Positions 8,244 to 22,843 of a stretch of 64,000 nucleotides of DNA are shown piece after piece. The position numbers were made by a program, and so were the translations under genes. The number at the start of each line of letters is the position of its first letter. Within the stretch, counting starts at the first letter, position 1. Source of the stretch: an uncultured Gemmatimonadales bacterium (GTDB lineage: Bacteria; Gemmatimonadota; Gemmatimonadetes; Longimicrobiales; RSA9); assembly GCA_963783305.1 (NCBI GenBank), contig CAWAMW010000016.1, positions 288,001 through 352,000 on the forward strand, written 5' to 3'. The notes beneath the pieces are model-generated. The model saw nothing but the letters and a program-made list of their open reading frames with translations, had not been told where the DNA came from and ran no database searches.

Positions 8244-8975
8244 ATGCGGTACGCCGAGTTCCAGCGGCGGGCGTCGCTCGTATGGGAGGAGATCCCGGAC
8301 GTGTATCGGTCCGGCGTCGACGGCCTGGTCCTGGAGCGGGAGGCCCGGGCGCACCCCACGATGCCGGAGATCTACACCCTCGGGGAGTGCCTGACCGAGG
8401 CGTACCCGTCCGACTGGGCCGGCCCGGAGACCACCCGCTCCGTCCTGGTGCTCTACTACGGGTCGTTCCGGCGGCTCGCCGAGCTCGACCCGGACTTCGA
8501 CTGGCGCTACGAGATCTGGGAAACCGTCACCCACGAGCTGCGGCACCACCTGGAGTCACTGGCGGTGGAGGACACGCTCGAGGACGTCGATTACGCAGTC
8601 GACGAGAACTTCAAGCGACTCGCGGACGAGCCCTTCGACCCCTACTTCTTCCGCTCCGGTGAGACCGTCGCGCCCGGCGTCTACGAGGCGGATCGCGACA
8701 TTTTCATCGAGGTCCCGTACCGCGCCGAAACGCCTCCTGGACCGTGGGTGGAGTTCGAGTGGGATGGCGCCCGACATTCGGTGGGCGTTCCGGGCGAGCT
8801 GGGAGACGTGACCTTCCTGCAGGTCGTGGGTGGTGTGGACCTCGGCTCGAGGGAGCTCTGCCTGGTCCTCGTGCGGCACAGGGGCTGGCTGGAGCAGTTG
8901 AAGAGCGTGTTCCGCCCTCGTCCGCCCACCGTCGTGGAGGCGGGTGTGACCGCCGTGGACCGGAGAACGGACTGA
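8244..8975 (+). CDS. Zincin-like metallopeptidase family protein
   Basis: ETVTHELRHH (HExxH-type) preceded by LVLYYGSF, typical of minimal zincins. Confidence 0.7.
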   Translation: MRYAEFQRRASLVWEEIPDVYRSGVDGLVLEREARAHPTMPEIYTLGECLTEAYPSDWAGPETTRSVLVLYYGSFRRLAELDPDFDWRYEIWETVTHELRHHLESLAVEDTLEDVDYAVDENFKRLADEPFDPYFFRSGETVAPGVYEADRDIFIEVPYRAETPPGPWVEFEWDGARHSVGVPGELGDVTFLQVVGGVDLGSRELCLVLVRHRGWLEQLKSVFRPRPPTVVEAGVTAVDRRTD

Positions 8976-8996
8976 CGACGCACGGTCGAAGAGTCC

Positions 8997-10832
8997 TCAG
9001 GCCACCCACTCCTCGCCTAGCGTGCTCGCGAGGCGGTCCACCGCCCGCACCAGATCCCGCGGACGGAACGGCTTCGGCAGGAACGAGGCGGGGCCGGGCA
9101 GCGGCCGGTCACCGCGGGCGAAACGATCCGACCCGGAGAAGAAGAGCACGGGCAGCATCGGGTCCGCCTCCCGGATCCGCTGGGCCAACTCCGTGCCGGA
9201 GCCGGAGCCGAGCGACAGGTCGGTCGCCAGCAGCGTGAACGGGGGGCCCGCGCAGTGGAAGCGCTCCAGCGCTCGCTCGACATCGGCGTACTCCTCCACC
9301 TCGTGACCGGCGCCGGTGAGAACGCGCCGCATCAGCGACCGGATCGGCTCCTGGTCCTCCACCAGCAGGATCCGCTCGCGCGTCCGCTTCCGCTCCTCAT
9401 GCGGCGTGCGCGCGGCCGGCGTATCGACCGCGGTGGCAGAGTCGGCGGCAGGGAAGTGAAGGTGGAAGGTTGTCCCCCGCCCGGGCGCCGACTCGATCCG
9501 GATCCGGCCTCCGCTCCGCTCGACGATCCCGTAGACGGTGCTCAGGCCGAGTCCCGTCCCCTCCCCCTTCGCCTTGGTGGTGAAGAACGGCTCGAAGACG
9601 CGACCCAGGGTGTCCTCGTCCATTCCTGCCCCCGTGTCCCTGATGGCCAGACTCGCCTCGCGCCTGCCATCGTCCGGATTCACCGAGGCTGCGGAGGTGA
9701 TGGTGATCGTGCCGCCGTGCGGCATGGCGTCCCGTGCGTTCACCACCAGGTTCAGCACCACCTGCTCGAGCTGACCGGCGTCCATGAGGACGGCGCCGGA
9801 TTCCGGATGAAGGTCCAGGACGAACTCGATCTCCGAGCCGATCACGCGATGGAGCATCTTTTCCAACCCCTCCACCACCGGGTTCAGCGGGATCCTTTCC
9901 GGGCGGCCCACGTCGGACGCCCTGCTGAACGCCAGGAGCTGCCGCGTGACGTGCGTGGCGAGATCGGCCGCCCGCTCGATCTCGCCCAGGTCCTCTCGGA
10001 GCGGGTCCCCCGGCGAGAGGGCCCGCGAGATCAGGTCCGCATGGCCCCGGATGGTCGTGAGCAGGTTGTTGAAATCGTGGGATACGCCGGCGGCCAGCCG
10101 GCCCATGGCGTCCATCTTCTGCGACTGCCGAAGCTGTTCCTCGAGAGCGCGCCGTTCGGTCATGTCCCGCGCCACGCCGAGAATGGCGCGCTCGCCGAAG
10201 TACAGCGTGGGGCTCAGCGTGATGTCCAGCGGAATCGGTCGACCTTCCCGTGTGCGGCCCCACCACTCGAACCGCTGCGGGTCCCCGTCGAGAGCCTGGT
10301 GCAGCCTGTGCTCGCCCGAGGCCAGGTCCACCCGGTCGGGCGCCGTGAGGTCCCCGAGCGTGCATCCCACGAGCGCGTTTCGGCTCATACCGAAGAGCCC
10401 AGCGGCCGCGGGGTTCGCCTCCATCACCTCGGCGTTGGTAGCCACGATGAACAGGGGCTCGATGCTGTTGTCGAACAGGTCGCGATAGCTCGTTTCGCTC
10501 TCCACCAGCGCCTGCTCCCGTTCCGCGACTTTTCGGCGCGCGGTGCGGAGCAGATGGCTCAGGAGCGTGATCAGGAGCGCGAAGACGAGCAGGAGCGCGG
10601 CCCGGACGCGGTCCCCGGGGTGGGCAATGGCCAGTGAGGCGTGCGGCGCGAGGATGGCATACGCCGCTCCCAGGACGGACACCAGAGACGCCGTGAATCC
10701 CGCCGGTACGCCACCGAACAGCGCGCTCCCCAGCACCACCACGAGGTAGAGGAGGAAGATGTTCTGGTGCAGAAGTGGCTGCGCGGCCGTGATGAGGCTT
10801 GCCACCACCGCCGCCGCCGCCGCGAGCAGCAC
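8997..10832 (-). CDS. Hybrid sensor histidine kinase (KdpD/DUF4118-like TM, PAS, HisKA, HATPase, receiver)
   Basis: HDFNNLL H-box, [30 protein letters not shown]-terminal receiver with KPF; start uncertain. Confidence 0.92.
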
Positions 10833-11125: not shown

Positions 11126-11863
11126 ATGAGCAGCGAACGACAGGACCCGTACGACCTGGCTTTTGGCGCGGAGTCGATGGACGAGCGGCTCTTCCCGCCC
11201 ATCGCGGAGGAGGCGGAGGCGCGGGATCAGCCGCTGGCGGACCCGGACCGTTTCGTATTCCTGAGCAGTGTGGGGAAGCTCCTCCAGGCCATCGCCGGGA
11301 GCGAGCCGTACGAGGGCGGGAAGAGCCCGACGGAGGAGGATCGCGAAGCTGTCCGGCAGTACGGCCGGCTGTTGTTCCACGCCTTCCACTTCTGGCGTGG
11401 CGGCAAGGTTCGCCGTGAGGTGGGCGAGGACCGGCTCCGCTGGCTCCTGGACGACGTCACCACCGTGGGCGACTGGGAGCTCCGCACGCCCGCGGGCTCC
11501 GGCTACCTCCGGCTGCCCCGCAACCTGGTCTGGGCGGCCCCCGCGCCGGGGCTTCCGCCCGAGCCCGTGGACGGACTCTTCTGGATGCTCGCGCGCCCTG
11601 ATGACGGGCGGGCGGTCCGGCTCCACATCCTCCTGACCCTGGGCGTCCGTTCCGACCGCGCCGGGTTCAGCGTGATCCCGGCCACCGGCGTGCTGGATGA
11701 CGAACGCCACTGGGCCGAGGTGCAGGGGCGTGCGGACGGGACCGACTTCGAGACGAACCTTCCCGGCGGTGAGATGGACGATCTCTACTCCATCGAGACG
11801 GCGGCGGAAGCGCTGAAGCTCGCATCGCTGGCCTTCTGGGAGCTGGACCCTGCGAGTGGATAA
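11126..11863 (+). CDS. Hypothetical protein
   Basis: Strong GC3 bias; ATG at 11126; overlaps the polX start by 8 nt. Confidence 0.75.
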   Translation: MSSERQDPYDLAFGAESMDERLFPPIAEEAEARDQPLADPDRFVFLSSVGKLLQAIAGSEPYEGGKSPTEEDREAVRQYGRLLFHAFHFWRGGKVRREVGEDRLRWLLDDVTTVGDWELRTPAGSGYLRLPRNLVWAAPAPGLPPEPVDGLFWMLARPDDGRAVRLHILLTLGVRSDRAGFSVIPATGVLDDERHWAEVQGRADGTDFETNLPGGEMDDLYSIETAAEALKLASLAFWELDPASG

Positions 11864-13575
11864 GGCGGTGGCGGCCCTCGTCCTCGAGGAGATCGCCGCA
11901 CTCCTCGCCCTTCAGGACGCCGAGCCGTTCCGGGTCCGCGCCTATCGCACCGCCGCGCGCGCCGTGGATGACGCACCCGGCGACCTCGACCGGCTCCTGG
12001 CCGACAACGAGCTGGCGGAGATCCCCGGGCTGGGCCCCGGCACCATCAGCGTTATCCGGGAGCTCGTGGAGACGGGCCGGTCCGGGCTGTACGACCGGCT
12101 CCGCGCCGAGACCCCGGCGGGAATCGTCCAGCTCCGCGGCGTCTCCGGGCTCGGGCCGAAGCGCGTCCGCACGCTCCACGAGGAGCTGGGGATCGAGACG
12201 CTGGAGGAGCTCCGCGCGGCCGCGGAGAGCGGCCGGGTCGCTCGCCTGAAGGGCTTCGGCCCCGCCACGCAGCGCCGGATCCTCGATGGGATCGACTTCG
12301 TCGCCGAGAGCTCCGGACGACGCCGCCAGCCCCAGGCCCACGGGACCGCCCACCGCCTGGTCGCCCACCTCCAGACGCTCGACGTGCGCGAGGTGAAGCT
12401 GGCGGGCGAGGTCCGGCGCGGCTGCGAGACCGTCGGCTCGATCGACCTGCTGGTGGTGTCCGAGGACGCCAATGCGGTGCTCGACGCCTTCATCGGGCTG
12501 CCGCACCTCACGCTGGCGGAGCGACAGGGCGCTGACCGGGCCCGCGCGGCCATGGCGGACGGCGCCACCATCCGCATCCGCTGCGTGGCGCCCGACGAGG
12601 CGCCCGCCGCGTGGGTGGCCCAGACCGGCTCGCCCGCCCACGTCGCGCGCCTCGAGGAGCGCGCCCGGACGCTGGGGTTCCGGCTCGACGACCGCGGGCT
12701 CTGGCGCCAGGAGGGCGGCGAGCGCATCCCCATCGCGGACGAGGAGGCGCTCTACGCCGCGCTGGAGCTGGAGTGGGTGCCGCCGGAGCTGCGGGAGGGG
12801 ACCGGCGAGGTGGAGTCTGGCGGCGGACGGTCGTCTGCCCCGGCTCGTCCGCTACGAGGACCTCCGGGGCACCTTCCACTGCCACACCACCTGGTCCGAC
12901 GGGCGCGGCACCGTGGCCGAGATGGCCGAGGGCGCGCTGGCCCGCGGGTGGCGCTACCTCGGCATCGCCGACCATTCCGCCAACGCCAGCTACGCCGGAG
13001 GCCTCACGGTGGAGGAGGTGCGGCAACAGCAGCGGGAGATCGACCGCTGGAACGCAGACCGCGGCGGAGAGCTGCGCCTCTTCAAGGGCGTGGAGGCCGA
13101 CATCCTGAACGATGGATCGCTCGACTACCCCGACGACGTGCTCGACTCCTTCGACTACGTCGTCGGGTCCGTCCACTCCGCCTTCCGGATGAAGGAGGCG
13201 GAGATGACCCGGCGCATCACGCGCGCGATCGCGGACCCGCGCCTCACCATCCTCGGCCACCCCACCGGCCGGCTGCTGCTGACCCGCGAGCCGTACGCGG
13301 TGGACATGAACGCCGTGATCGACGCGGCGGCCGGAGCGGGCGCCGCCATCGAGATCAACGCCGACCCCCACCGCATGGACATGGACTGGCGCTACTGGCC
13401 CGCGGCCCGGGAGAAGGGCGTCCGCTGCGCCATCGACCCCGACGCCCACTCCGTGGCCGGCCTCGGCGCTGTCGTGTACGGCGTGTCCATGGCCCGGAAG
13501 GGCGGGCTGGAGCCCGCGGACGTCATCAACACGTGGGAGCTGGAGCGGGTGGAGTCGTACCTGGGAGAGCGATGA
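11856..13575 (+). pseudogene. polX: DNA polymerase X / PHP-domain protein, frameshifted (+1 T at about 12816; real lesion or assembly error)
   Basis: 5' frame has PFRVRAY, HhH motifs (IPGLGP, GLGPKR, KGFG), TGS..H and WVPPELRE. 3' frame has HCHTTWSDG, DHS, GVEAD, GSVHS, GHPTGR, EIN and DPDAH. Removing T12816 (gag[t]ctggcg) joins them as GEVELAADGRLP. Confidence 0.85.
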
Positions 13576-14273
13576 GCGACGAGAGGCGCAGGACCCGAAG
13601 GACCGACGCCGGTCGGCGCTTCGTCGGCGAGAAGAAGGCGGAGCGGATGGAGCGGGTGGAGGAGATCATCCGTCGCCTGTGGGAAGAGTACCCCGACGCC
13701 GAGACCTCGCTCGAGTACCGGAACCCGTACGAGCTCCTCACCGCCACCATCCTCTCGGCGCAGTGCACCGACGAGCGCGTGAACATGGTCACTCCGGAGC
13801 TCTTCCGGCGCTACCCCACGCCCCGCGACCTGGCGGGCGCCCGCACGGAGGACGTGGAGGAGATCATCCGCTCCACCGGCTTCTTCCGCCAGAAGACGAA
13901 GAGCCTCCTCGGCATGGCCGAGGCGGTGAGCCAGGAGCACGCCGGGGAAGTGCCCCGGACCATGAAGGCGCTGGTGAAGCTGCCCGGCGTGGGTCGCAAG
14001 ACCGCCAACGTGGTGCTCGGCAACGCGTTCGGAAAGGACGAGGGCGTGGTGGTGGACACCCACGTGAAGCGGCTCTCCGGCCGGCTCGGGCTCACCAGCC
14101 AAACCACCCCCGAGAAGATCGAGAAGGACCTCGTGCGGCTCGTGCCGAAAGCGTCGTGGACCGACCTGCCGCACCTGTTCATCTTCCACGGCCGCGCGGT
14201 CTGCAAGGCCCCCACGCCGCTCTGCGGGGAATGCATCCTCGCCGACATCTGCCCCAGCGCCCGGATCGGTTAG
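13572..14273 (+). CDS. nth: Endonuclease III
   Basis: ILSAQCTD, HhH LPGVGRKTANVV, VDTHV, and 4Fe-4S motif C-x6-C-x2-C-x5-C; ATGA overlap with polX. Confidence 0.95.
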   Translation: MSDERRRTRRTDAGRRFVGEKKAERMERVEEIIRRLWEEYPDAETSLEYRNPYELLTATILSAQCTDERVNMVTPELFRRYPTPRDLAGARTEDVEEIIRSTGFFRQKTKSLLGMAEAVSQEHAGEVPRTMKALVKLPGVGRKTANVVLGNAFGKDEGVVVDTHVKRLSGRLGLTSQTTPEKIEKDLVRLVPKASWTDLPHLFIFHGRAVCKAPTPLCGECILADICPSARIG

Positions 14274-15125: not shown

Positions 15126-15683
15126 ATGCCGACGCGTGAAGATGCCGTTGCGCTGCTGGAGGAGTGGGTCGAGAACGAGGGCCTGCGCAAGCACATGTAC
15201 TCCGTCGAGGCCGCCGTCCGGAGCTACGCCCGGGACCAGGGCGAGGACGAGGAGCTGTGGGGGCTGGCCGGTCTCCTGCACGACCTCGACTGGGAGAAGT
15301 ACCCGGACCAGCACCCGCTCAAGGCGGTCGAAGCGCTCCGGGCTCGCGGCTACCCTGAGGAGGTCCTCCACGCCATCCTCGCCCACCGCAGCGACTTCAC
15401 CGGTGTGGAGCCCGAGACGCCGCTGGACCGGACGCTCGTGGCCTGCGACGAGATCACGGGGCTGGTCATGGCCACCGCACTCGTCCGCCCCAACGGGATC
15501 GATGACCTGAAGCCGAAGTCCGTCAAGAAGAAGATGCGCGACTCCGCTTTCGCTGCTGGCGTCGACCGCGAAAGTGTCCGGTACGGCGCCGAGCTCCTGG
15601 GCATCGATTTCAATGAGCACATCGCCAATGTCATAGCAGCCATGCGGGGGATCGGCGATGAGCTCGGGCTGAGCAGGGGGTAG
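15126..15683 (+). CDS. HD-superfamily (HDIG-type) metal-dependent hydrolase
   Basis: KHMYSVE, LLHDLD, AILAH and ACDE motifs; GAGGAG RBS. Confidence 0.88.
   Translation: MPTREDAVALLEEWVENEGLRKHMYSVEAAVRSYARDQGEDEELWGLAGLLHDLDWEKYPDQHPLKAVEALRARGYPEEVLHAILAHRSDFTGVEPETPLDRTLVACDEITGLVMATALVRPNGIDDLKPKSVKKKMRDSAFAAGVDRESVRYGAELLGIDFNEHIANVIAAMRGIGDELGLSRG
15513..15683 (+). repeat. Left copy of a 171-bp diverged direct repeat (3' end of the HD gene)
   Basis: Colinear, without indels, with 22664-22834; 42 of 56 encoded residues identical. Confidence 0.9.
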
Positions 15684-16000
15684 GATCCGGTGACGGTGCC
15701 GCGGACACCGACGAGTGCGCCGGAGTGTCCGCGACGGTGTCCGCGACACGCTCCTGTCGCGAGAACCGTCGCGGGCGGCGGACTCCGACTTTGGCTCGAA
15801 TCTCCGCGTACGCTGCCTCAAAAATGCACGCCAAGTCGAAGCGCCGAGGATCTAATGCGCACCAGTGTTGACTTGCTCGTTACTGAGAGATAGCGTCCAG
15901 TCAGGATCTGTGCGTGGCAGCTGGCATGCCCACCCCCTTGGGCACAGACCTCGAAGCGGAATCACTCCAGGTTCGTGGGTTCCTACCGCAAGGCAGAAAC

Positions 16001-16529
16001 ATGCCCACACTCCGCAAAGAATGGCTGACGCCGGGGATCGCACTGGTAGCAGTGCTACTGGTGGGCGCGCTGGCGTACCCGAACCGGCTGCTGATGGCGG
16101 ATCTGGCTGACCTGCAGTACCGGCCTGGCCCGCACCCTGGACGGTGATTCCCTCCAGATCGTGAGCGGTGTGAGATCGGACCGACAGGTCCTGGTCCTGT
16201 TTACCACCACCTGCCAGTATTGCGCGGCATCGGTGCCGACGTGGAACCAACTCGCACAACGCCTTGAACTCGACGGGACGAGTTTGGTCGGGATCTCGCT
16301 CGACTCCGTGCCCGAAACGGAATCGTACAGGCGCACGCACGGCCTACAGTACCCGGTCATTACGTTTCCCCTCGAGAGTCTTCGTCGGATGTATCGAGCC
16401 CATTCCGTCCCGATCACCATGGTAGTCGCTGGTGACGGCCGGATTATCTATTCACGAATGGGAGTGTTGAGTGACGGTCCTGCGGCGGACTCCGTAATCG
16501 CAGCGGTTCACTGGCGCCCGGCCGAGTGA
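16001..16529 (+). pseudogene. TlpA/peroxiredoxin-like membrane-anchored CxxC thiol-disulfide oxidoreductase, frameshifted near 16095-16147
   Basis: First frame: MPTLRKEW plus a TM helix. Second frame: ARTLDGDS...VLFTTTCQYC...W...VGISLD...SVPITMVV..DGRI, i.e. a thioredoxin fold with CxxC and cis-Pro. Confidence 0.7.
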
Positions 16530-16624
16530 GGCGGGATTCTGCCGGAGCAGTAGTCACGAGCTGCCATGCTCCGGTCGGGGGGACGTACTTCGGCGTCCCC
16601 GGAACACACCACGCGGAGGTTCTC

Positions 16625-16873
16625 ATGACACAATGGTTGAAGCGAGTTGCAAAGAGCGCAGCAGTTGGCGCCGCGGCGTTAGTGCTCACTTTTGGGGCCC
16701 ACACTCTCTATGCATCCAGCGCTCCGATCTCGGCCTGCTCACCACAGGATCCCGGCTATCTGGGAACGTGTCCTACATACACGCCCGAGACGTGCGAAAT
16801 GGACTGTGAATTCTATTTCCAGACCGATGGCAATCAGTGCGTCGGCGGATGCTGTATCTGCCAGACGCGATGA
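16625..16873 (+). CDS. Secreted 82-aa cysteine-rich peptide with defensin-like (CS-alpha/beta) Cys spacing
   Basis: GGAGGT RBS, ATG at 16625, Sec-type signal (KR, hydrophobic core, LYA|S), 8 Cys spaced C-x10-C-x7-C-x3-C-x10-C-x3-CC-x-C; stop overlaps the next ATG. Confidence 0.8.
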   Translation: MTQWLKRVAKSAAVGAAALVLTFGAHTLYASSAPISACSPQDPGYLGTCPTYTPETCEMDCEFYFQTDGNQCVGGCCICQTR

Positions 16874-18114
16874 CTGATCCAACCGGGATCGCACGCGGCG
16901 CGAGTCACCTGGGGTTCGCGCTCCTGTTGGCCCTGGTGGCCGCGTGCGATCCCGGCGAAGTATCTGTGGTGGATGTGGATCGTCGCACCACGCCGCCGGG
17001 CGACACGCTGTACGTCACCGTCCTCCGCCCCGACGGAACGCCTGCCGCCGATGCGGACGTGGGCTATCTCACGGGCATGGGCAGCACGAACTTCGTCTGG
17101 GGAGAGGCTCGCACCGATGCCGAGGGCCGGGTTGCCCTCACCAACCTCGCCTCTGGCGGCATGTACTGGCTCGGGGCCGAACAGGAGGACGCGGAGCTGG
17201 GCGTGTTGGGAGGGGGGGAGAAGGCTCAAGGGCCGTCCGGCGGATCCGCGGAGCTCCTGATCGAACTGTCACCGCCGCGCACGTCTGGCGTGGTGATCAG
17301 CGAGGTGTACATGGACGCCCCTAACCCGTGGGAGACGGGGGACACCTACTACTACTACAGCAAGTACATCGAGCTGGCCAACAACTCGCCCGCGCCGCTC
17401 TACCTGGATGGAATGCTGATATTTACCGCGTACGCGTGGTGGTATGATGCCGGCGTGGCCGGTCACCACCGGTGCGAGGACACGGCCACCATGCGGAACG
17501 ATTCGCTGGGCGTGTGGTCGGAGGTGATCTGGCAGATCCCGGGCTCGGGCTCGGAGCATCCGCTGGGGCCGGGCGAAGCCGCCGTTCTGGCGGTTTCGGC
17601 CGCGGACCACACCGCCATCCATCCGACGTTGCTGGACCTCTCCGGCGCAAGGTTCGAATTCGGCGTCTCCGGTGTGGCTGACAACCCGGCAGCGCCCGAC
17701 CTGATCTGGCACGGGCCCAAGCCGCCGACATCCAGTGATTTCTCTCTGATCCATATGTACTGGGGAGTGGCTTCACCCGGTGACGTAGACTCGTTCGTCA
17801 GCAGGCCTGATCCGGGCGCTACCGGCCGCGTGGACGAGTACCGGCGGATTCCAGCGGACCTGGTCGAAGATGTGTCGTTCGTCTTCTGGGATCGGACCGG
17901 GTCGTACTCGCAGGCTCCGCCGCGGCCCGCGTGCGACCACCCGGTCCACCCGACGTTCGACCGACTACCGGGGGGGTTCCTCCTCGAGAGCGAGATCGAG
18001 TTCTCCGGCCAGCGCCGGTCCGTCACGGTGAACGGTCGCTCGCTCCTGCTGGACACGAACACGAGCTGGGTCGACTTCATGAAGGCGGAGCGGACGCCGG
18101 GGTGGCTGCCGTGA
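16870..18114 (+). CDS. DUF4876-like outer-membrane lipoprotein
   Basis: Lipobox LVAAC; VISEVY, KYIELANNS..PLYLDG and LDTNTS.VDF match my recollection of DUF4876 motifs. Confidence 0.7.
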   Translation: MTDPTGIARGASHLGFALLLALVAACDPGEVSVVDVDRRTTPPGDTLYVTVLRPDGTPAADADVGYLTGMGSTNFVWGEARTDAEGRVALTNLASGGMYWLGAEQEDAELGVLGGGEKAQGPSGGSAELLIELSPPRTSGVVISEVYMDAPNPWETGDTYYYYSKYIELANNSPAPLYLDGMLIFTAYAWWYDAGVAGHHRCEDTATMRNDSLGVWSEVIWQIPGSGSEHPLGPGEAAVLAVSAADHTAIHPTLLDLSGARFEFGVSGVADNPAAPDLIWHGPKPPTSSDFSLIHMYWGVASPGDVDSFVSRPDPGATGRVDEYRRIPADLVEDVSFVFWDRTGSYSQAPPRPACDHPVHPTFDRLPGGFLLESEIEFSGQRRSVTVNGRSLLLDTNTSWVDFMKAERTPGWLP

Positions 18115-20912
18115 GGCGGCGGGCGGCGGGCGTTCGAGGGCGACTCCTATTGCTGGCCCTGCTGGGCGCGCTGCCTGCCGGAGCTGCGGCCCAGTCCGTG
18201 ATCGTGGGGCACGTACTGGAGGCGCAGACGGAGGCGCCGATCGCGGGGGCGGCCGTGCAGGTCGAGGGGGTGCAGGGAGTGGTGCTGACGGACAGCGCGG
18301 GCCGGTACGTGCTGGCCCGCGTCCCGGCGGGTCCCCAGATGCTGCGGGTCGACCGGCTGGGTTATGCGACGGCGCGGGTGGCGGTGGTTGTCCCCGCCCG
18401 CGGCACGCTGCAGCAGGACGTGCGCATGGCCGAGACGGCGCTGGACATCGAGGGGATCGTGGTCACGGCCGACGTCGCGAGCCGCGCCCGGGGCGAGCTG
18501 GGCACCGCGAGCGTGGTGGGCGAGGACGCGATCCGTCAACAGACCGCGGTGAGCCTGGCGGGCGTGCTTGAGCTGGTGCCCGGGGCGCAGCTCGAGTCGC
18601 CCGGGCTCGAGTCGGTCTCGCAGGTGTCGCTCCGGGCCATTCCCACGTACGGGGCGGCGTCCACCACGAGCGGCACCAGCACCTCGGACCTGGCCAGCTT
18701 CGGGACGCTGATCGTGCTGGACGGCGTGCCGCAGACGAACAACGCGAACCTCCAGACGCTGGGATCCCGGGGCGAGCTGTCGTTCACGACCTCGGCGGGC
18801 GGCGGGATCGACCTGCGACGCATCCCCGCCGCGGCCATCGAGCGCGTCGAGGTGATCCGGGGCGTGCCCTCGGCCCGCTACGGCGACCTCACCCAGGGCG
18901 CCATCGTGGTGGACACGCGCACCGCGGCCATCCCGCCGGAGGTGATGGCCCGCTACGACGCCCGCAGCCTCGAGGTCTCGACGGTGGCGGGGCGGACGTT
19001 CGGCCGGGACGACCACGCCGGGTCGTTCACCATGGACATGGCGCGCACGCGGAGCCAGCCGGGTGTCTCCGACGATGAGACGCTCCGCGTGGCCGGCCAG
19101 CTCGCGCACCGCATCGCCGTCGGACCGTCCGGCGGCCTGGTGCTCGACACGCGGGTGGACGCGTTCCAGCTCGTGGACGACCGTCCGGAGGACCCGAACG
19201 TCCGGCCGGAGCGCTCCTCCTGGAGCCGGGACCGGGGGCTGCGCCTATCGGAACGGGCGCGACTCCGGCTGCCGTTCGACGCGCGCCTCACCTGGACGGC
19301 CTCCTACTCCCGACTCGAGCAGCGCTCGGTGGCCGCGTCGCCCCGGGTGCGCGGGCCGCAGCCGTTCACGGACCGGCTGACGCCGGGGCGGAGCGAGGGA
19401 CGGTTCGTCATCGGCCGCTACGAGTCGGAGCTCGCCATCGACGGGACGCCACATTTGCTGTTCTCGCGTCTCGAGCTCGCCGGCGAGCGGGACTGGCTGG
19501 GTCTGGCCCACGAGATCCGGATCGGGAACGAGCTGCGCCGGGAGTGGAACAGCGGGGCCGGGTACCAGTTCGACATGGAGTTCCCACCCCAGGTCACCTT
19601 CAACAGCGTTCAGGGCTACGACCGCCCCAGGTCGTACCACGATATTTCACCGCTCGTCCACACCGCGCTCTACATCGACGACCGCATGAGCCGCACGCTG
19701 CCGGGTGACGTGGTGATGAACCTGCAGGCGGGCTTCCGGGCGGACATGCTGCACGAGGGCGGCTGGTGGGCGTCGGGTGTGAGGGACGCGATCGTGCAGC
19801 CGCGCGTGAACCTGGAGCTGATCCCATGGCCGTGGCTGCGGCTCCGGGCGGGATGGGGTCGCACCGCGAAGACGCCCTCCCTCGCCCAGCTCTCTCCCTC
19901 GCCGCAGTACCACGACGTGGTGAACGTGAACTACTTCGCCAACGACCCGGCGGAGCGGCTGGCCGTGCTCACCACCAGCATCAAGGACCCCACCAACCCG
20001 GAGCTGGGTTTCTCCCGGGCGACGAAGCGGGAGGCGGGGCTCGAGCTCGCGCTGGGCGGGACGACCGTACAGATCGTGGGGTTCTCCGATCGGATCGATG
20101 GCGGCATCGGACAGCGCCAGGATCTCGACACGGTGCTGAGGGACCGATACGAGCTCACCGACAGCATCCTCGGCAACGGGATCCCCCCGACCATCATCGA
20201 GCCGCCCTACCGGACGGACACCATTCCGGTGCTCGTAGGACGCCCCGACCACATCCTGACCCTCGAGAGCCGGGGCCTGGAGCTCACGGCGCTCCTGCCG
20301 GAGTTCCGGCCGCTGCGCACCCGCCTGCAGGTGCAGGGCGCGGTGATCCGGACACGCCAGACCACCACCGGCGTCTATTATGGCCGTGGCGAGAGGTTCT
20401 CCGACTTCCAGCTGCTGGAAGGGATCCAGCGGATCCCGTACTGGGAGGGCGGCGCGGAAGAGAGCGAGCGGGCCCTCGTGACATACCGCCTCATCCACCA
20501 TCAGCCGGAGCTGGGTTTCGTGATCACCGGTGTCATCCAGCACAACATCCACGACTGGAGCGGTGCGGCCACGGCGACCGACACCCTCGCCTTCGATGGG
20601 TACGTGAACCGCCGGGGCGAGCGCGTGCCCGTGCCCCGGGAGGATCGGGCCGCGCCCGAGTATGCCGACCTCCGGGTCCCCCGGAGCGGGGTCCTCACGG
20701 AGCTCCGGGCGACGCCGGGGGACTGGATGCTGGGGCTCCAGGCCAGCAAGACGCTCCCCCTCGACGGCCGCCTCAGCTTCTGGGTCTACAACCTCTTCGA
20801 CAAACGGGGGATCTTCGGCGAGCTGGATGTGCAGCCCCGAACGTATGGCGCCATGCGGTTCGGGCTCGAGCTCAAGCTCGCCACCAGCGGGCTGACGGAG
20901 CTGCTCCAGTGA
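18111..20912 (+). CDS. TonB-dependent receptor with N-terminal carboxypeptidase-regulatory-like domain
   Basis: Signal peptide, TonB-box-like GIVVTA, plug motifs LELVPG and DLRRIP..IERVEVIRG..SARYG, NPEL, C-terminal FGLELKL; GTGA overlap with the upstream gene. Confidence 0.88.
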   Translation: MRRRAAGVRGRLLLLALLGALPAGAAAQSVIVGHVLEAQTEAPIAGAAVQVEGVQGVVLTDSAGRYVLARVPAGPQMLRVDRLGYATARVAVVVPARGTLQQDVRMAETALDIEGIVVTADVASRARGELGTASVVGEDAIRQQTAVSLAGVLELVPGAQLESPGLESVSQVSLRAIPTYGAASTTSGTSTSDLASFGTLIVLDGVPQTNNANLQTLGSRGELSFTTSAGGGIDLRRIPAAAIERVEVIRGVPSARYGDLTQGAIVVDTRTAAIPPEVMARYDARSLEVSTVAGRTFGRDDHAGSFTMDMARTRSQPGVSDDETLRVAGQLAHRIAVGPSGGLVLDTRVDAFQLVDDRPEDPNVRPERSSWSRDRGLRLSERARLRLPFDARLTWTASYSRLEQRSVAASPRVRGPQPFTDRLTPGRSEGRFVIGRYESELAIDGTPHLLFSRLELAGERDWLGLAHEIRIGNELRREWNSGAGYQFDMEFPPQVTFNSVQGYDRPRSYHDISPLVHTALYIDDRMSRTLPGDVVMNLQAGFRADMLHEGGWWASGVRDAIVQPRVNLELIPWPWLRLRAGWGRTAKTPSLAQLSPSPQYHDVVNVNYFANDPAERLAVLTTSIKDPTNPELGFSRATKREAGLELALGGTTVQIVGFSDRIDGGIGQRQDLDTVLRDRYELTDSILGNGIPPTIIEPPYRTDTIPVLVGRPDHILTLESRGLELTALLPEFRPLRTRLQVQGAVIRTRQTTTGVYYGRGERFSDFQLLEGIQRIPYWEGGAEESERALVTYRLIHHQPELGFVITGVIQHNIHDWSGAATATDTLAFDGYVNRRGERVPVPREDRAAPEYADLRVPRSGVLTELRATPGDWMLGLQASKTLPLDGRLSFWVYNLFDKRGIFGELDVQPRTYGAMRFGLELKLATSGLTELLQ

Positions 20913-22579
20913 TGCCTCGGAGCCGGGTCCGGGCGCGGCGCCCCGACGCTCTGCGGAGCGTGCTGGCGGCCGGCTGCGTCGTCGGCTGGCTTCTGAGCCC
21001 TGTCGGTGAGGCGGCGGCCCAGATGGTCCCGGCTACCGGGAGCGGGCCGGGGCCCGAGTCGTGGATGACCCGGTGGAGCCCCCTGACGCCGCTGGGCGAT
21101 CTCCCCCGCGGCATGCCCGGCGCCGCTCCCGGCACGCCGGGCCTGCTGCTCACGCCGGCGCCCCGAGCCAGCCTGTTCTGGAGCCTGGGCAACCCCGCGG
21201 CCCTCGCCACGGAGCCACTGGACGGGTGGAGCACCTATCGGGTGGGGGGCAGCAAGAGCGAGGGCGAGTACCGTCGGCCGCTGGATCCCGCCCGGGAGGA
21301 CCGGCTCCGGATCTCCGCGGAGGGCTGGAGCGAGGCGGGGAGCCGCAGCGCGGCGGCGGGGCGCGTCGTCCTCGACCGCGTTACGCACGGGGCGCCCGCC
21401 CTGGCCAACGTGGCCGCGCCCTACGGCAGCAGCCCCCTCGTTGTGCTGGACACCGCCCACTCCGACCTGGGCAGCACGGCCGCGCGCCTCGAGGGTGCGC
21501 TGGCCGTGGAGCTCGGCGCCTTCGGACTCGGCGTGGCCCTCGGCTTCGACGCACTGGAGACCCGGACGGTAGCCGCTCCCGTCCCGCAGGCCATCCGCGC
21601 CGCGGTGCCCGGCGCGACGGCAGGCGCGACCTGGAAGCCCCTCGGCTCGGACCGCTTCCAGGTCGGCGTCCACGGCCGCTGGCAGCACTCCATGCAGCGC
21701 ATCAACCTCTACTCCCTGGCCGCGCCGACCCGCGTGTATCACCTGGCGGGGTACGGGGAGATCCCGCCCGTCAACGTCGTCTCCACCTTCTATCGCCGCG
21801 AGATGGAGCGGACCAGCCGGGGCGCCGGAGCCGGGCTCCAGGCCCGACTGGCGGGCGCGCGCCTCATCGCCTTCGCGGAGCTTTCCGACGCCGAGGAAGA
21901 GCAGTCCACCATCGAGGTCAACGACCCGCCGCTGGACGTGTGGGCCGCCGACCAGCTACGGTTCGGAGCGGTCATGCAGCGGCGGTTCCTGGCCGATCAG
22001 CTCCTGATCCACGCCTCCGCCACACAGGCGGAGGTGACCGGACGGGCACGGCTCCACGAGCAGGACGACCGGGTCGTCTTCACCACCGACGAGAGCGCCC
22101 TCCACCTCTCCCTCGACACCCGGTTGGACCTCGACTCCTGGAGCTTCGGCGCCCGGCTGACCGGAGCCCGGCACTCCCGGACCGCCGTCGACTCCACCGT
22201 GAGCGCCCGGTCCGAGATCCGGAGCTGGACCACCGGCGGCTCACTGGAAGGAGCGCGGCGGCTCGGCCACGGCTTCTCCGCCGCCGCCGGGGCCGCCCTG
22301 AACCTCTACCGCGCCGCGGGCGCCATCCCGAACCCCCTCCATCTCGGCGAGTCCTACAACGCCTACGTGGGTCCCGAGCTCGCCCTCTACGGAAGCGACG
22401 CAACCGCCCGCGCCGGCACGTTCACGCTGCGCTGGGACCGGCCCGCCGGCGGACCCGGCGTCTTCCTTCACGCCCGCGCCGCCTCCGCGGTACCCGGGGA
22501 CGAGGCGGGGTTGCCCCTGGCACGGCGCGACGCTCGACGATCGGGGTGGAGCATCACGTTCGGGGCGATCGTGAGGTGA
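20912..22579 (+). CDS. DUF6850-like outer-membrane beta-barrel protein
   Basis: Signal peptide, GNPAAL motif, alternating amphipathic strands, terminal WSITFGAIV strand; position after DUF4876/TBDR genes; TGATG overlap. Confidence 0.6.
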   Translation: MPRSRVRARRPDALRSVLAAGCVVGWLLSPVGEAAAQMVPATGSGPGPESWMTRWSPLTPLGDLPRGMPGAAPGTPGLLLTPAPRASLFWSLGNPAALATEPLDGWSTYRVGGSKSEGEYRRPLDPAREDRLRISAEGWSEAGSRSAAAGRVVLDRVTHGAPALANVAAPYGSSPLVVLDTAHSDLGSTAARLEGALAVELGAFGLGVALGFDALETRTVAAPVPQAIRAAVPGATAGATWKPLGSDRFQVGVHGRWQHSMQRINLYSLAAPTRVYHLAGYGEIPPVNVVSTFYRREMERTSRGAGAGLQARLAGARLIAFAELSDAEEEQSTIEVNDPPLDVWAADQLRFGAVMQRRFLADQLLIHASATQAEVTGRARLHEQDDRVVFTTDESALHLSLDTRLDLDSWSFGARLTGARHSRTAVDSTVSARSEIRSWTTGGSLEGARRLGHGFSAAAGAALNLYRAAGAIPNPLHLGESYNAYVGPELALYGSDATARAGTFTLRWDRPAGGPGVFLHARAASAVPGDEAGLPLARRDARRSGWSITFGAIVR

Positions 22580-22663: not shown

Positions 22664-22834
22664 CCGAAGTCGTTTATGAAGAAGATGAAGGACGCCTCGT
22701 TCGCCGCCGGTGTGGACCGCGACGACGTCCGCCATGGCGCCGAGCTCATCGGCATCGATTTCGACGACCACGTCGCCAATGTCATTGCCGCCATGCATGA
22801 CATTGGCGATGAGCTCGGGCTGAGCCGGGGGTAG
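22664..22834 (+). pseudogene. Displaced 3' fragment of the HD-domain gene (right copy of the direct repeat)
   Basis: Encodes PKSFMKKMKDASFAAGVDRDDVRHGAELIGIDFDDHVANVIAAMHDIGDELGLSRG*, homologous to the HD protein C-terminus; the 5' part is absent. Confidence 0.88.
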
Positions 22835-22843
22835 GAGCGCCGG

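Follow-up and report, generated by a model that had tools for sequence, protein, structure and literature searches.

Acidic, predicted defensin-like peptides encoded with a candidate disulfide oxidase and a DUF4876-lidded importer in Gemmatimonadota

In this work we have followed up a small open reading frame in a 64,000-nucleotide stretch of DNA (the window) from an uncultured Gemmatimonadales bacterium, and we have found that it belongs to a gene set of candidate oxidase, peptide, lid, transporter and barrel which recurs in related loci. The peptides share a negative charge and a pattern of cysteines that come and go in pairs, and, judged from their sequences, they make up a large family of Gemmatimonadota peptides, so far unannotated, which are acidic and predicted to take a defensin shape. 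A literature search, with most subscription papers outside its coverage, found no description of the gene set; what appears to be new is thus a family of cis-defensin-like peptides with four predicted disulfides, encoded together with an oxidase and an importer covered by a DUF4876 lid. As an explanation we tentatively propose, at a little under even confidence, that the peptide is exported by Sec, folded by its own oxidase and serves as the polymorphic lock-and-key partner of its cognate lid in uptake.

The peptide gene (16625..16873, forward strand) encodes 82 amino acids, namely a predicted Sec signal of approximately residues 1-30 and an acidic eight-cysteine core with a predicted CS-alpha-beta fold. 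The mature part, residues 31-82, comprises 52 amino acids (5.58 kDa reduced, pI 4.05), among them eight Cys, three Asp, three Glu and a single Arg, with Lys and His absent. Read from the sequence, the cysteines are spaced C2-x7-C3-x3-C4-x10-C5-x4-C7-x-C8, with C1 and C6 as extras. A first-pass annotation had described this reading frame, spacing and charge (six acidic residues, one basic), and translation reproduced all three; the good ribosome-binding site which it mentioned is a Shine-Dalgarno-like GGAGG at 16615..16619 (forward strand), 5 nt before the ATG. The CS-alpha-beta-type pattern is matched by five of the 45,644 six-frame open reading frames of the genome, one being the peptide and the remaining four low-complexity runs of Cys, Arg, Val and Ser, and within-frame shuffling gave 0-1 matches per round in five rounds. 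In the leader, a basic n-region and a hydrophobic stretch occur together with the sequence L-Y-A/S and the LxFG motif of the family. Among 225 parsed family leaders, AxA is present in 146, the n-region charge has a median of +3, and a Tat-like motif occurs in 14, the window peptide not being one of them. Export through a Sec signal is likely from these features. A single-sequence search with the peptide gave four candidates, of which only the peptide itself matched; no Pfam or NCBIfam family matched it, and an ESM Atlas search yielded no family, its best score of 0.84 being a lead only. A scan of the locus for promoters and terminators gave nothing convincing, and DNA run X1 covers the peptide gene with no listed difference. 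Contigs from the RNA runs X9 and X12 do not cover the gene usefully, which speaks neither for nor against its expression, and the related strain in X2 shows no cover there. As a separate observation, FG is conserved within the hydrophobic stretch of the signal peptide in 197 of 246 family sequences (alignment A2), and leaders of the FxLG/SF type in myxobacterial class II defensins, as given in the available supplement of PMC11561630, resemble these FG leaders.

The family was missed by plain homology search and its relatives were recovered through synteny. The cysteine pattern alone gave 19 peptides from 17 of the first 33 loci, and profile iteration over loci fetched via the lid and the barrel raised the number of distinct intact peptides to 108; 101 of these were kept and seven with doubtful starts or truncation were left out. 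The iterative small-ORF search suggested by the first-pass annotation produced 101 relatives with conserved cysteines: four (C3, C4, C7 and C8) are invariant in the 102 aligned members, and at least 90% of them have C1. This conservation is the decisive evidence that the cysteine pattern is real. At 50% identity the family profile matches 1,075 clusters with E up to 1e-3 and 229 at 1e-10, in a cluster library that gives neither taxonomy nor gene context. It also matches 23 of 401 genomes of the phylum and 7 of 73 of the family. DUF6850 was found in 24 of the 401, and 17 genomes have both DUF6850 and peptide, to which G185 and G255 add an intact and a frameshifted peptide; this overlap is partly built in, since the profile was made from lid-adjacent peptides, and related genomes are not independent. 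Among the six peptide-positive genomes without DUF6850, G432 appears spurious and the cysteine pattern of G261 is different.

What do these cysteines say about the fold? Their number is even in 244 of the 246 family sequences. The layout of the window peptide is found in 184; C2 and C5 are jointly absent from 24, mostly of one clade, and C1 and C6 from two; in 32 the sixth cysteine is shifted from the last strand into the helix, C6 and the helix cysteine being mutually exclusive; and three carry an extra pair. Because cysteines are lost in pairs, as such bonds would give, disulfides C2-C5 and C1-C6 are suggested. The connectivity C2-C5, C3-C7, C4-C8 would fit the loss of C2 and C5, and the possible fourth disulfide of the first-pass annotation finds indirect support as C1-C6. 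The window peptide and 244 of the 246 sequences have CxxxC in the helix and CxC in the last strand, the other two having a helix insertion, and a gamma-core GxC precedes the first hairpin cysteine in 162 of the 184 sequences of the window's subtype; the window peptide itself has G-N-Q-C. An AlphaFold2 model built with 72 sequences (pLDDT 73.8) predicts beta-alpha-beta-beta, with strands at residues 15-18, 40-43 and 46-49 and a helix at 24-35. In the structure search the top 12 VIA rows were defensins, defensin-like toxins or cystine-dense peptides, the best being a weak match to the plant defensin PDFL2.1 (2MZ0; Z 4.2, rmsd 2.5 over 41 residues). Foldseek matches were also weak (E 1.8 at best), and the best PDB sequence match of the family profile was the tomato defensin TPP3 (4UJ0, E 0.0041). 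The structure prediction and fold search proposed at first pass thus returned a predicted helix with beta strands and defensins at the top, and model, fold and profile matches agree, weakly, with the secreted CS-alpha-beta peptide then suggested; the peptide is probably a member of the cis-defensin superfamily. Net charge is negative in 237 of the 246 sequences, zero in seven and positive in two, with a median of -4. The only conserved columns other than cysteines are glycines and one proline, Asp and Glu together never exceed 36% of a column, and the family alignment columns hold no conserved metal ligand other than Cys. In one ten-cysteine member (L066:396-713) a long poly-Asp run is inserted into the hairpin loop, and the net charge is -19; two further ten-cysteine members occur in L066 and L067.

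One survey of bacterial cis-defensins (Cardoso et al. 2024, PMC11561630) counts 74 database sequences, and Dash et al. 2019, as cited there, reported CS-alpha-beta peptides in many bacterial phyla. According to the available text of this survey, its class II and III members (xanthusin-1, cellulosin-1) likewise combine a signal peptide with a CS-alpha-beta cysteine framework, and acidic N-terminal tails are described there; for class III a further disulfide is predicted which starts from C1 and, depending on the passage, ends at C6 or C5. The survey's defensins come from Proteobacteria (myxobacteria included), Acidobacteria and Actinobacteria, and the strings "Gemmatimon", "TonB" and "thioredoxin" occur zero times in its main text. 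By eye, the class III pattern in its Table S4, C-x2-C...C-x2-C-x-C with a tail of about 15 residues, is not matched by the window peptide, which has C-x10-C...CC-x-C and a tail of seven. Plant defensins or gamma-thionins (PDFL2.1, TPP3), the best but weak matches, have the same beta-alpha-beta-beta order and four disulfides, but their fourth bond joins the first to the last cysteine (class V description), whereas the candidate here is C1-C6. Actifensin, or actinodefensin (NF038042), shares the bacterial C6 cis-defensin core and a variable sequence; in the available text of PMC6989792 it has a GA-type leader, ABC transporters and three disulfides, and is basic and antibacterial, while the window family has a predicted Sec-type leader and four predicted disulfides, is acidic and has no ABC exporter among its recurring neighbours. 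The NF038042 profile does not match the window peptide and matches seven of 102 members weakly (best E 0.0043).

The first-pass annotation overlooked the gene directly upstream, which encodes a thioredoxin-fold protein and is likely the maturase. At 16001..16529 (forward strand) Pfam recognizes a membrane-anchored protein of this fold (AhpC-TSA/Redoxin, motif CQYC), whose gene is frameshifted in this assembly. In the contig of a related strain the gene is 38 bases longer at 16123/16124, enough to explain the frame change; at the break two motifs, both of which homologs conserve, overlap each other in different frames, and run X1 has a hole at 16104-16200 which spans it. As the gene is frameshifted, this copy of the system may need housekeeping Dsb enzymes or be decaying. 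A thioredoxin gene lies directly upstream on the same strand of 71 of the 106 peptides with room for one, and a peptide directly downstream of 81 of the 105 thioredoxin matches; loci found via the peptide alone (L221-L224, L228, L232) have thioredoxin-peptide pairs without an adjacent lid. A transmembrane helix lies at the N-terminus of these proteins, and their motif is mostly CPYC or CPFC, with CPYC the commonest (30 of 108 matches). CxxC motifs with Pro in second place resemble those of DsbA and DsbG rather than those of TlpA and ResA. Similarity to MauD, ResA and StoA is weak and below all cut-offs, ResA and StoA giving the best NCBIfam scores; the MauD model (TIGR02661, cut-off 188.6 bits) gave 26.7-32.7 bits for two of three intact homologs scanned (E 5e-8 for one) and left the third homolog and the window fragment unmatched. 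This protein is likely a dedicated disulfide oxidase or isomerase which matures the peptide. In the MauD-MauA pair, too, a CxxC thioredoxin is dedicated to a small protein rich in disulfides, which docks on a larger partner, MauD serving the dedicated folding of a six-disulfide small subunit (available text of 10.64898/2026.03.05.709764 and PMC7794033). The pair differs in that the family thioredoxin is far below the MauD cut-off, that no mauE or mauG neighbour recurs, and in fold and context.

Downstream, the ATG of the lid gene overlaps the peptide stop (ATGA). The predicted lid of the transporter (16870..18114, forward strand) is a DUF4876 lipoprotein with the lipobox LVAA-C26, a transthyretin-like N-domain and a BT_1938-like C-domain. 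It is followed by a non-SusC TonB-dependent transporter with CarboxypepD_reg, Plug and barrel (18111..20912, forward strand), whose start, from translation, is probably a GTG overlapping the lid stop, and by an outer-membrane beta-barrel protein assigned to DUF6850 by Pfam (20909..22579, forward strand). Over the Pfam cut-off the block has DUF4876, Plug, barrel and DUF6850. The transporter scores 50 bits against TIGR04056 (cut-off 368), has CarboxypepD_reg at its N-terminus with no Pfam match to an STN signalling domain, and has eight PDB sequence matches, no FusA or YddB chain among them. DUF6850 had no PDB sequence match, and a first scan of genome contigs with the lid sequence alone gave no match. 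The lid model has a pLDDT of 94, and its C-domain aligns with BT_1938 at Z 25.6 (4Q1Z; rmsd 2.7 over 255 residues). This domain, like the peptide, is acidic (median net -13), so direct docking would need cations or hydrophobic contacts. A lid lies directly downstream of 91 of 111 peptides, 47 in tandem and 44 convergent, a biased count as the loci were fetched via lid or barrel. Tandem copies of the whole unit occur in L087, L230, L163, L123 and L146, and lids outnumber peptides in L038, L120 and L039. Other arrangements were also seen. Five loci (L039, L047, L055, L058, L063) have one to three lids with transporter and barrel, without peptide or thioredoxin, and G438, a single contig, carries five lids, divided between two loci, with no peptide match genome-wide. 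In L221 (6132-8601) and L222 (3974-7731) the thioredoxin-peptide module lies beside a six-bladed propeller lipoprotein instead of a lid, a CarboxypepD_reg-Plug protein without barrel also adjoining it, and L038 and L003 carry a related propeller-like gene. In the Bacteroidota loci L106, L108, L110, L111, L114 and L115 (around 8400-9700) the trio of lid, transporter and barrel is followed by a gene of about 380 amino acids which we take to resemble a di-haem cytochrome c peroxidase.

Lidded TonB-dependent transporters (TBDTs) are known from Bacteroidota. The available text of bioRxiv 10.1101/2023.03.17.533168 describes DUF4876 proteins as predicted TBDT lids which leave an opening of about 20 A and have no known phenotype, and according to that of PMC10434189, B. 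thetaiotaomicron and P. gingivalis induce the loci BT3625-33, BT1933-39 and PG1019-22 when depleted of iron. These iron-induced systems (BT1939/BT1938, BT3633/BT3632, PG1019-22) have the same combination of TBDT, DUF4876 and DUF6850; the Gemmatimonadota loci differ by the added peptide and thioredoxin and by their multiplied lids. No peptide or thioredoxin match was found in 21 Bacteroidota or Ignavibacteria loci with the trio, 12 of them itemized gene by gene, and the peptide module has thus been added to an older importer. Import by Fus/YddB-PqqL is a precedent for a TBDT that takes in a whole small protein for its metal, but in that case the protein taken up comes from the host, and the cluster includes a gene for a periplasmic M16 protease (available text of PMC6793856); no protease recurs beside the loci of the peptide family, and no M16 protease was found in the window block or in 11 recurring-neighbour representatives.

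The five genes occupy a block of about 7.15 kb, bracketed by a duplicated end of an HD-domain gene. The left copy of the 173-nt direct repeat (15513..15685, forward strand) is the 3' end of the intact HD gene (15126-15683); the right copy (22664..22836, forward strand) is 80% identical and is a displaced 3' end. These diverged flanking repeats make it likely that the block is an old insertion. Three genomes of the same genus retain PfpI-HD and differ in the genes downstream. As the first-pass annotation had noted, there is no radical SAM or other RiPP enzyme, either in a Pfam scan of the locus or among the recurring neighbours of related loci, and no dedicated exporter or inner-membrane uptake gene recurs among these neighbours, which were scanned in 11 representatives from the 22 largest clusters. 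Some clades have regulators beside their loci: a divergent zf-HC2 anti-sigma-like gene at eight (L239:12359-13300 and seven related) and an AraC-type gene at seven (among them L092 and L150), the AraC-type genes falling into clusters of four and three. IS elements adjoin some loci. Upstream in the window, at 11856-14273, a PolX/PHP-like gene (named by eye) is apparently frameshifted, with its C-terminal part in the frame 12472-13575; its first frame reads on into an endonuclease III-like gene, which hints at more indels in the assembly. Outside the window, DUF6850 occurs a second time at G000:C15:25449-26308, as a frameshifted fragment which shares 50-58% identity with the C-terminal half and has neither a lid nor a transporter nor a peptide match next to it.

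Is a peptide paired specifically with its own lid? From the sequence comparisons this is plausible. Mapped on the lid tree, the disulfide subtype of the peptides changes six times against a shuffled mean of 39.6 (n=94), but it tracks the thioredoxin tree almost as well (5 changes vs 3 on the lid tree, n=45), so the tree signal shows co-inheritance; the "T6" subtype labels of L153 and L162 and the L087_2909 core values stem from frameshifted peptide genes. A partial Mantel test which favoured lid over thioredoxin (0.19 vs 0.035) was discounted, since the leader behaved similarly (0.13) and the pairs are not independent. Units 1 and 3 of array L087 are 95% identical upstream, 100% in the leader and 93% in the lid N-domain, whereas their cores share only 70% and their lid C-domains 62% identity; between distant lids the C-domain is the more conserved one (0.38 vs 0.30 for the N-domain). 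Core and C-domain have thus diverged amid near-identical flanks, which suggests that they were exchanged together, a pattern not seen in five other arrays tested. In 41 close lid pairs core identity correlates with the lid C-domain (rho 0.66) and less with the N-domain (0.19); the variable loops of the lid lie at approximately mature residues 120-139, 160-179, 260-269, 290-299 and 310-329. The correlation comes mainly from convergent loci, where core and C-domain are neighbours, and in tandem loci at the 0.6 threshold the effect vanishes (0.42 vs 0.45, 16 pairs). In 17 independent pairs, chosen at at least 80% leader identity, pS and pN are 0.21 and 0.04 for the leader and 0.51 and 0.28 for the core. 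The core diverges faster than the leader even at synonymous sites, which points to cassette exchange, and its dN/dS of 0.40 gives no sign of positive selection at the depth sampled.

How might such a system work? The acidic, eight-cysteine, defensin-fold peptide would be exported by Sec, the upstream CxxC thioredoxin would lock its disulfides by the logic of MauD or DsbA, and the peptide would then dock on the C-terminal domain of the DUF4876 lid. It would in this way be a strain-variable partner of a TonB-dependent importer in nutrient uptake. We favour the variant in which it is a self-made carrier, which is released, binds its cargo and is recaptured only by the matching lid, so that the cargo remains private; this cargo would be a cation, most plausibly iron, held by the carboxylate-rich surface. 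Alternatively, the peptide could be a small exchangeable subunit which stays on the lid and alters what the lid binds. That a defensin fold has been turned into a self-made, strain-private protein cargo of an outer-membrane importer in Gemmatimonadota is in itself a doubtful proposition, although one worth stating. The first-pass annotation had proposed a receptor ligand, signal or metal carrier: gene context now supplies a candidate receptor, while the metal carrier lacks a conserved metal site. Against a partnership with the importer stand the trios without peptide and the thioredoxin-peptide pairs without adjacent lid, the lack of any conserved non-Cys metal ligand, and the lack of a recurring exporter for crossing the outer membrane.

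The same loci could be read in terms of conflict. The peptide may be a narrow-spectrum, polymorphic toxin that attacks kin via lid, TBDT or DUF6850, with the cognate lid neutralizing it or being the resistant allele and extra lids giving orphan protection. A conserved leader with a hypervariable, apparently swapped core would suit such a weapon, as would the overlap of the peptide and lipoprotein genes, the surplus of lids in three loci, the patchy distribution in the family's genomes, the inserted block with IS elements near some loci, and the replacement of the partner lipoprotein by a propeller in L221 and L222; actifensin, moreover, is a cis-defensin that acts as a bacteriocin (PMC6989792, available text). 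Yet the lid is homologous to a transporter component found without peptides across Bacteroidota, the core dN/dS gives no sign of positive selection at the depth sampled, no bacteriocin exporter recurs, and the myxobacterial xanthusin-1 was expressed and had no antimicrobial activity (PMC11561630, available text). We consider a toxin unlikely, if still a serious prospect, and a peptide of negative charge could still be one. A classical broad-spectrum defensin, active on membranes or lipid II and linked to the transporter merely by co-transfer on an island, appears very unlikely: the fold matches include antimicrobial defensins of plants, insects and fungi, some members match actinodefensin weakly and co-inheritance explains part of the tree signal, but net-positive cores are confined to two sequences, and the adjacency of peptide and lid outlasts inversion, reordering (tandem and convergent loci alike) and duplication as a unit.

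Could the peptide instead be a signal of kin identity or quorum, imported by the cognate lid and TBDT and read by a regulator, in the manner of plant defensin-fold ligands? The lock-and-key style of variation and the anti-sigma-like and AraC-type genes beside some loci fit this idea, and three family members weakly match SLR1-BP. The regulators are clade-specific and absent at the window locus, however, and the transporter begins with CarboxypepD_reg in place of a matching STN domain, so that we hold a signalling role to be improbable. The slimmest chance, in our judgement, belongs to a Cys-thiolate metal binder, similar to metallothionein or ferredoxin and kept reduced by a reductase of the ResA/TlpA type. 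Eight cysteines in an acidic peptide, the ResA and StoA scores of the thioredoxin and the iron induction of homologous importers speak for it; the even cysteine counts, losses and shifts that follow CS-alpha-beta pairs, and the defensin fold of the model speak against it.

The family interconverts between three disulfide frameworks, its gene context is fixed and names both a candidate folding enzyme and a candidate receptor, and two questions thereby become testable, namely the role of acidic bacterial defensins and the cargo of the DUF4876-lidded, iron-induced TonB transporters. The family also amounts to a natural collection of scaffolds rich in disulfides, together with a matching candidate oxidase. 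If the peptide is indeed a strain-private cargo, it would be the first ligand for DUF4876-lidded transporters and would give bacterial defensins a role outside defence. The system would then be a ribosomal counterpart of the lock-and-key diversity of siderophores and their receptors, in which the peptide core and the lid domain are swapped as a cassette.
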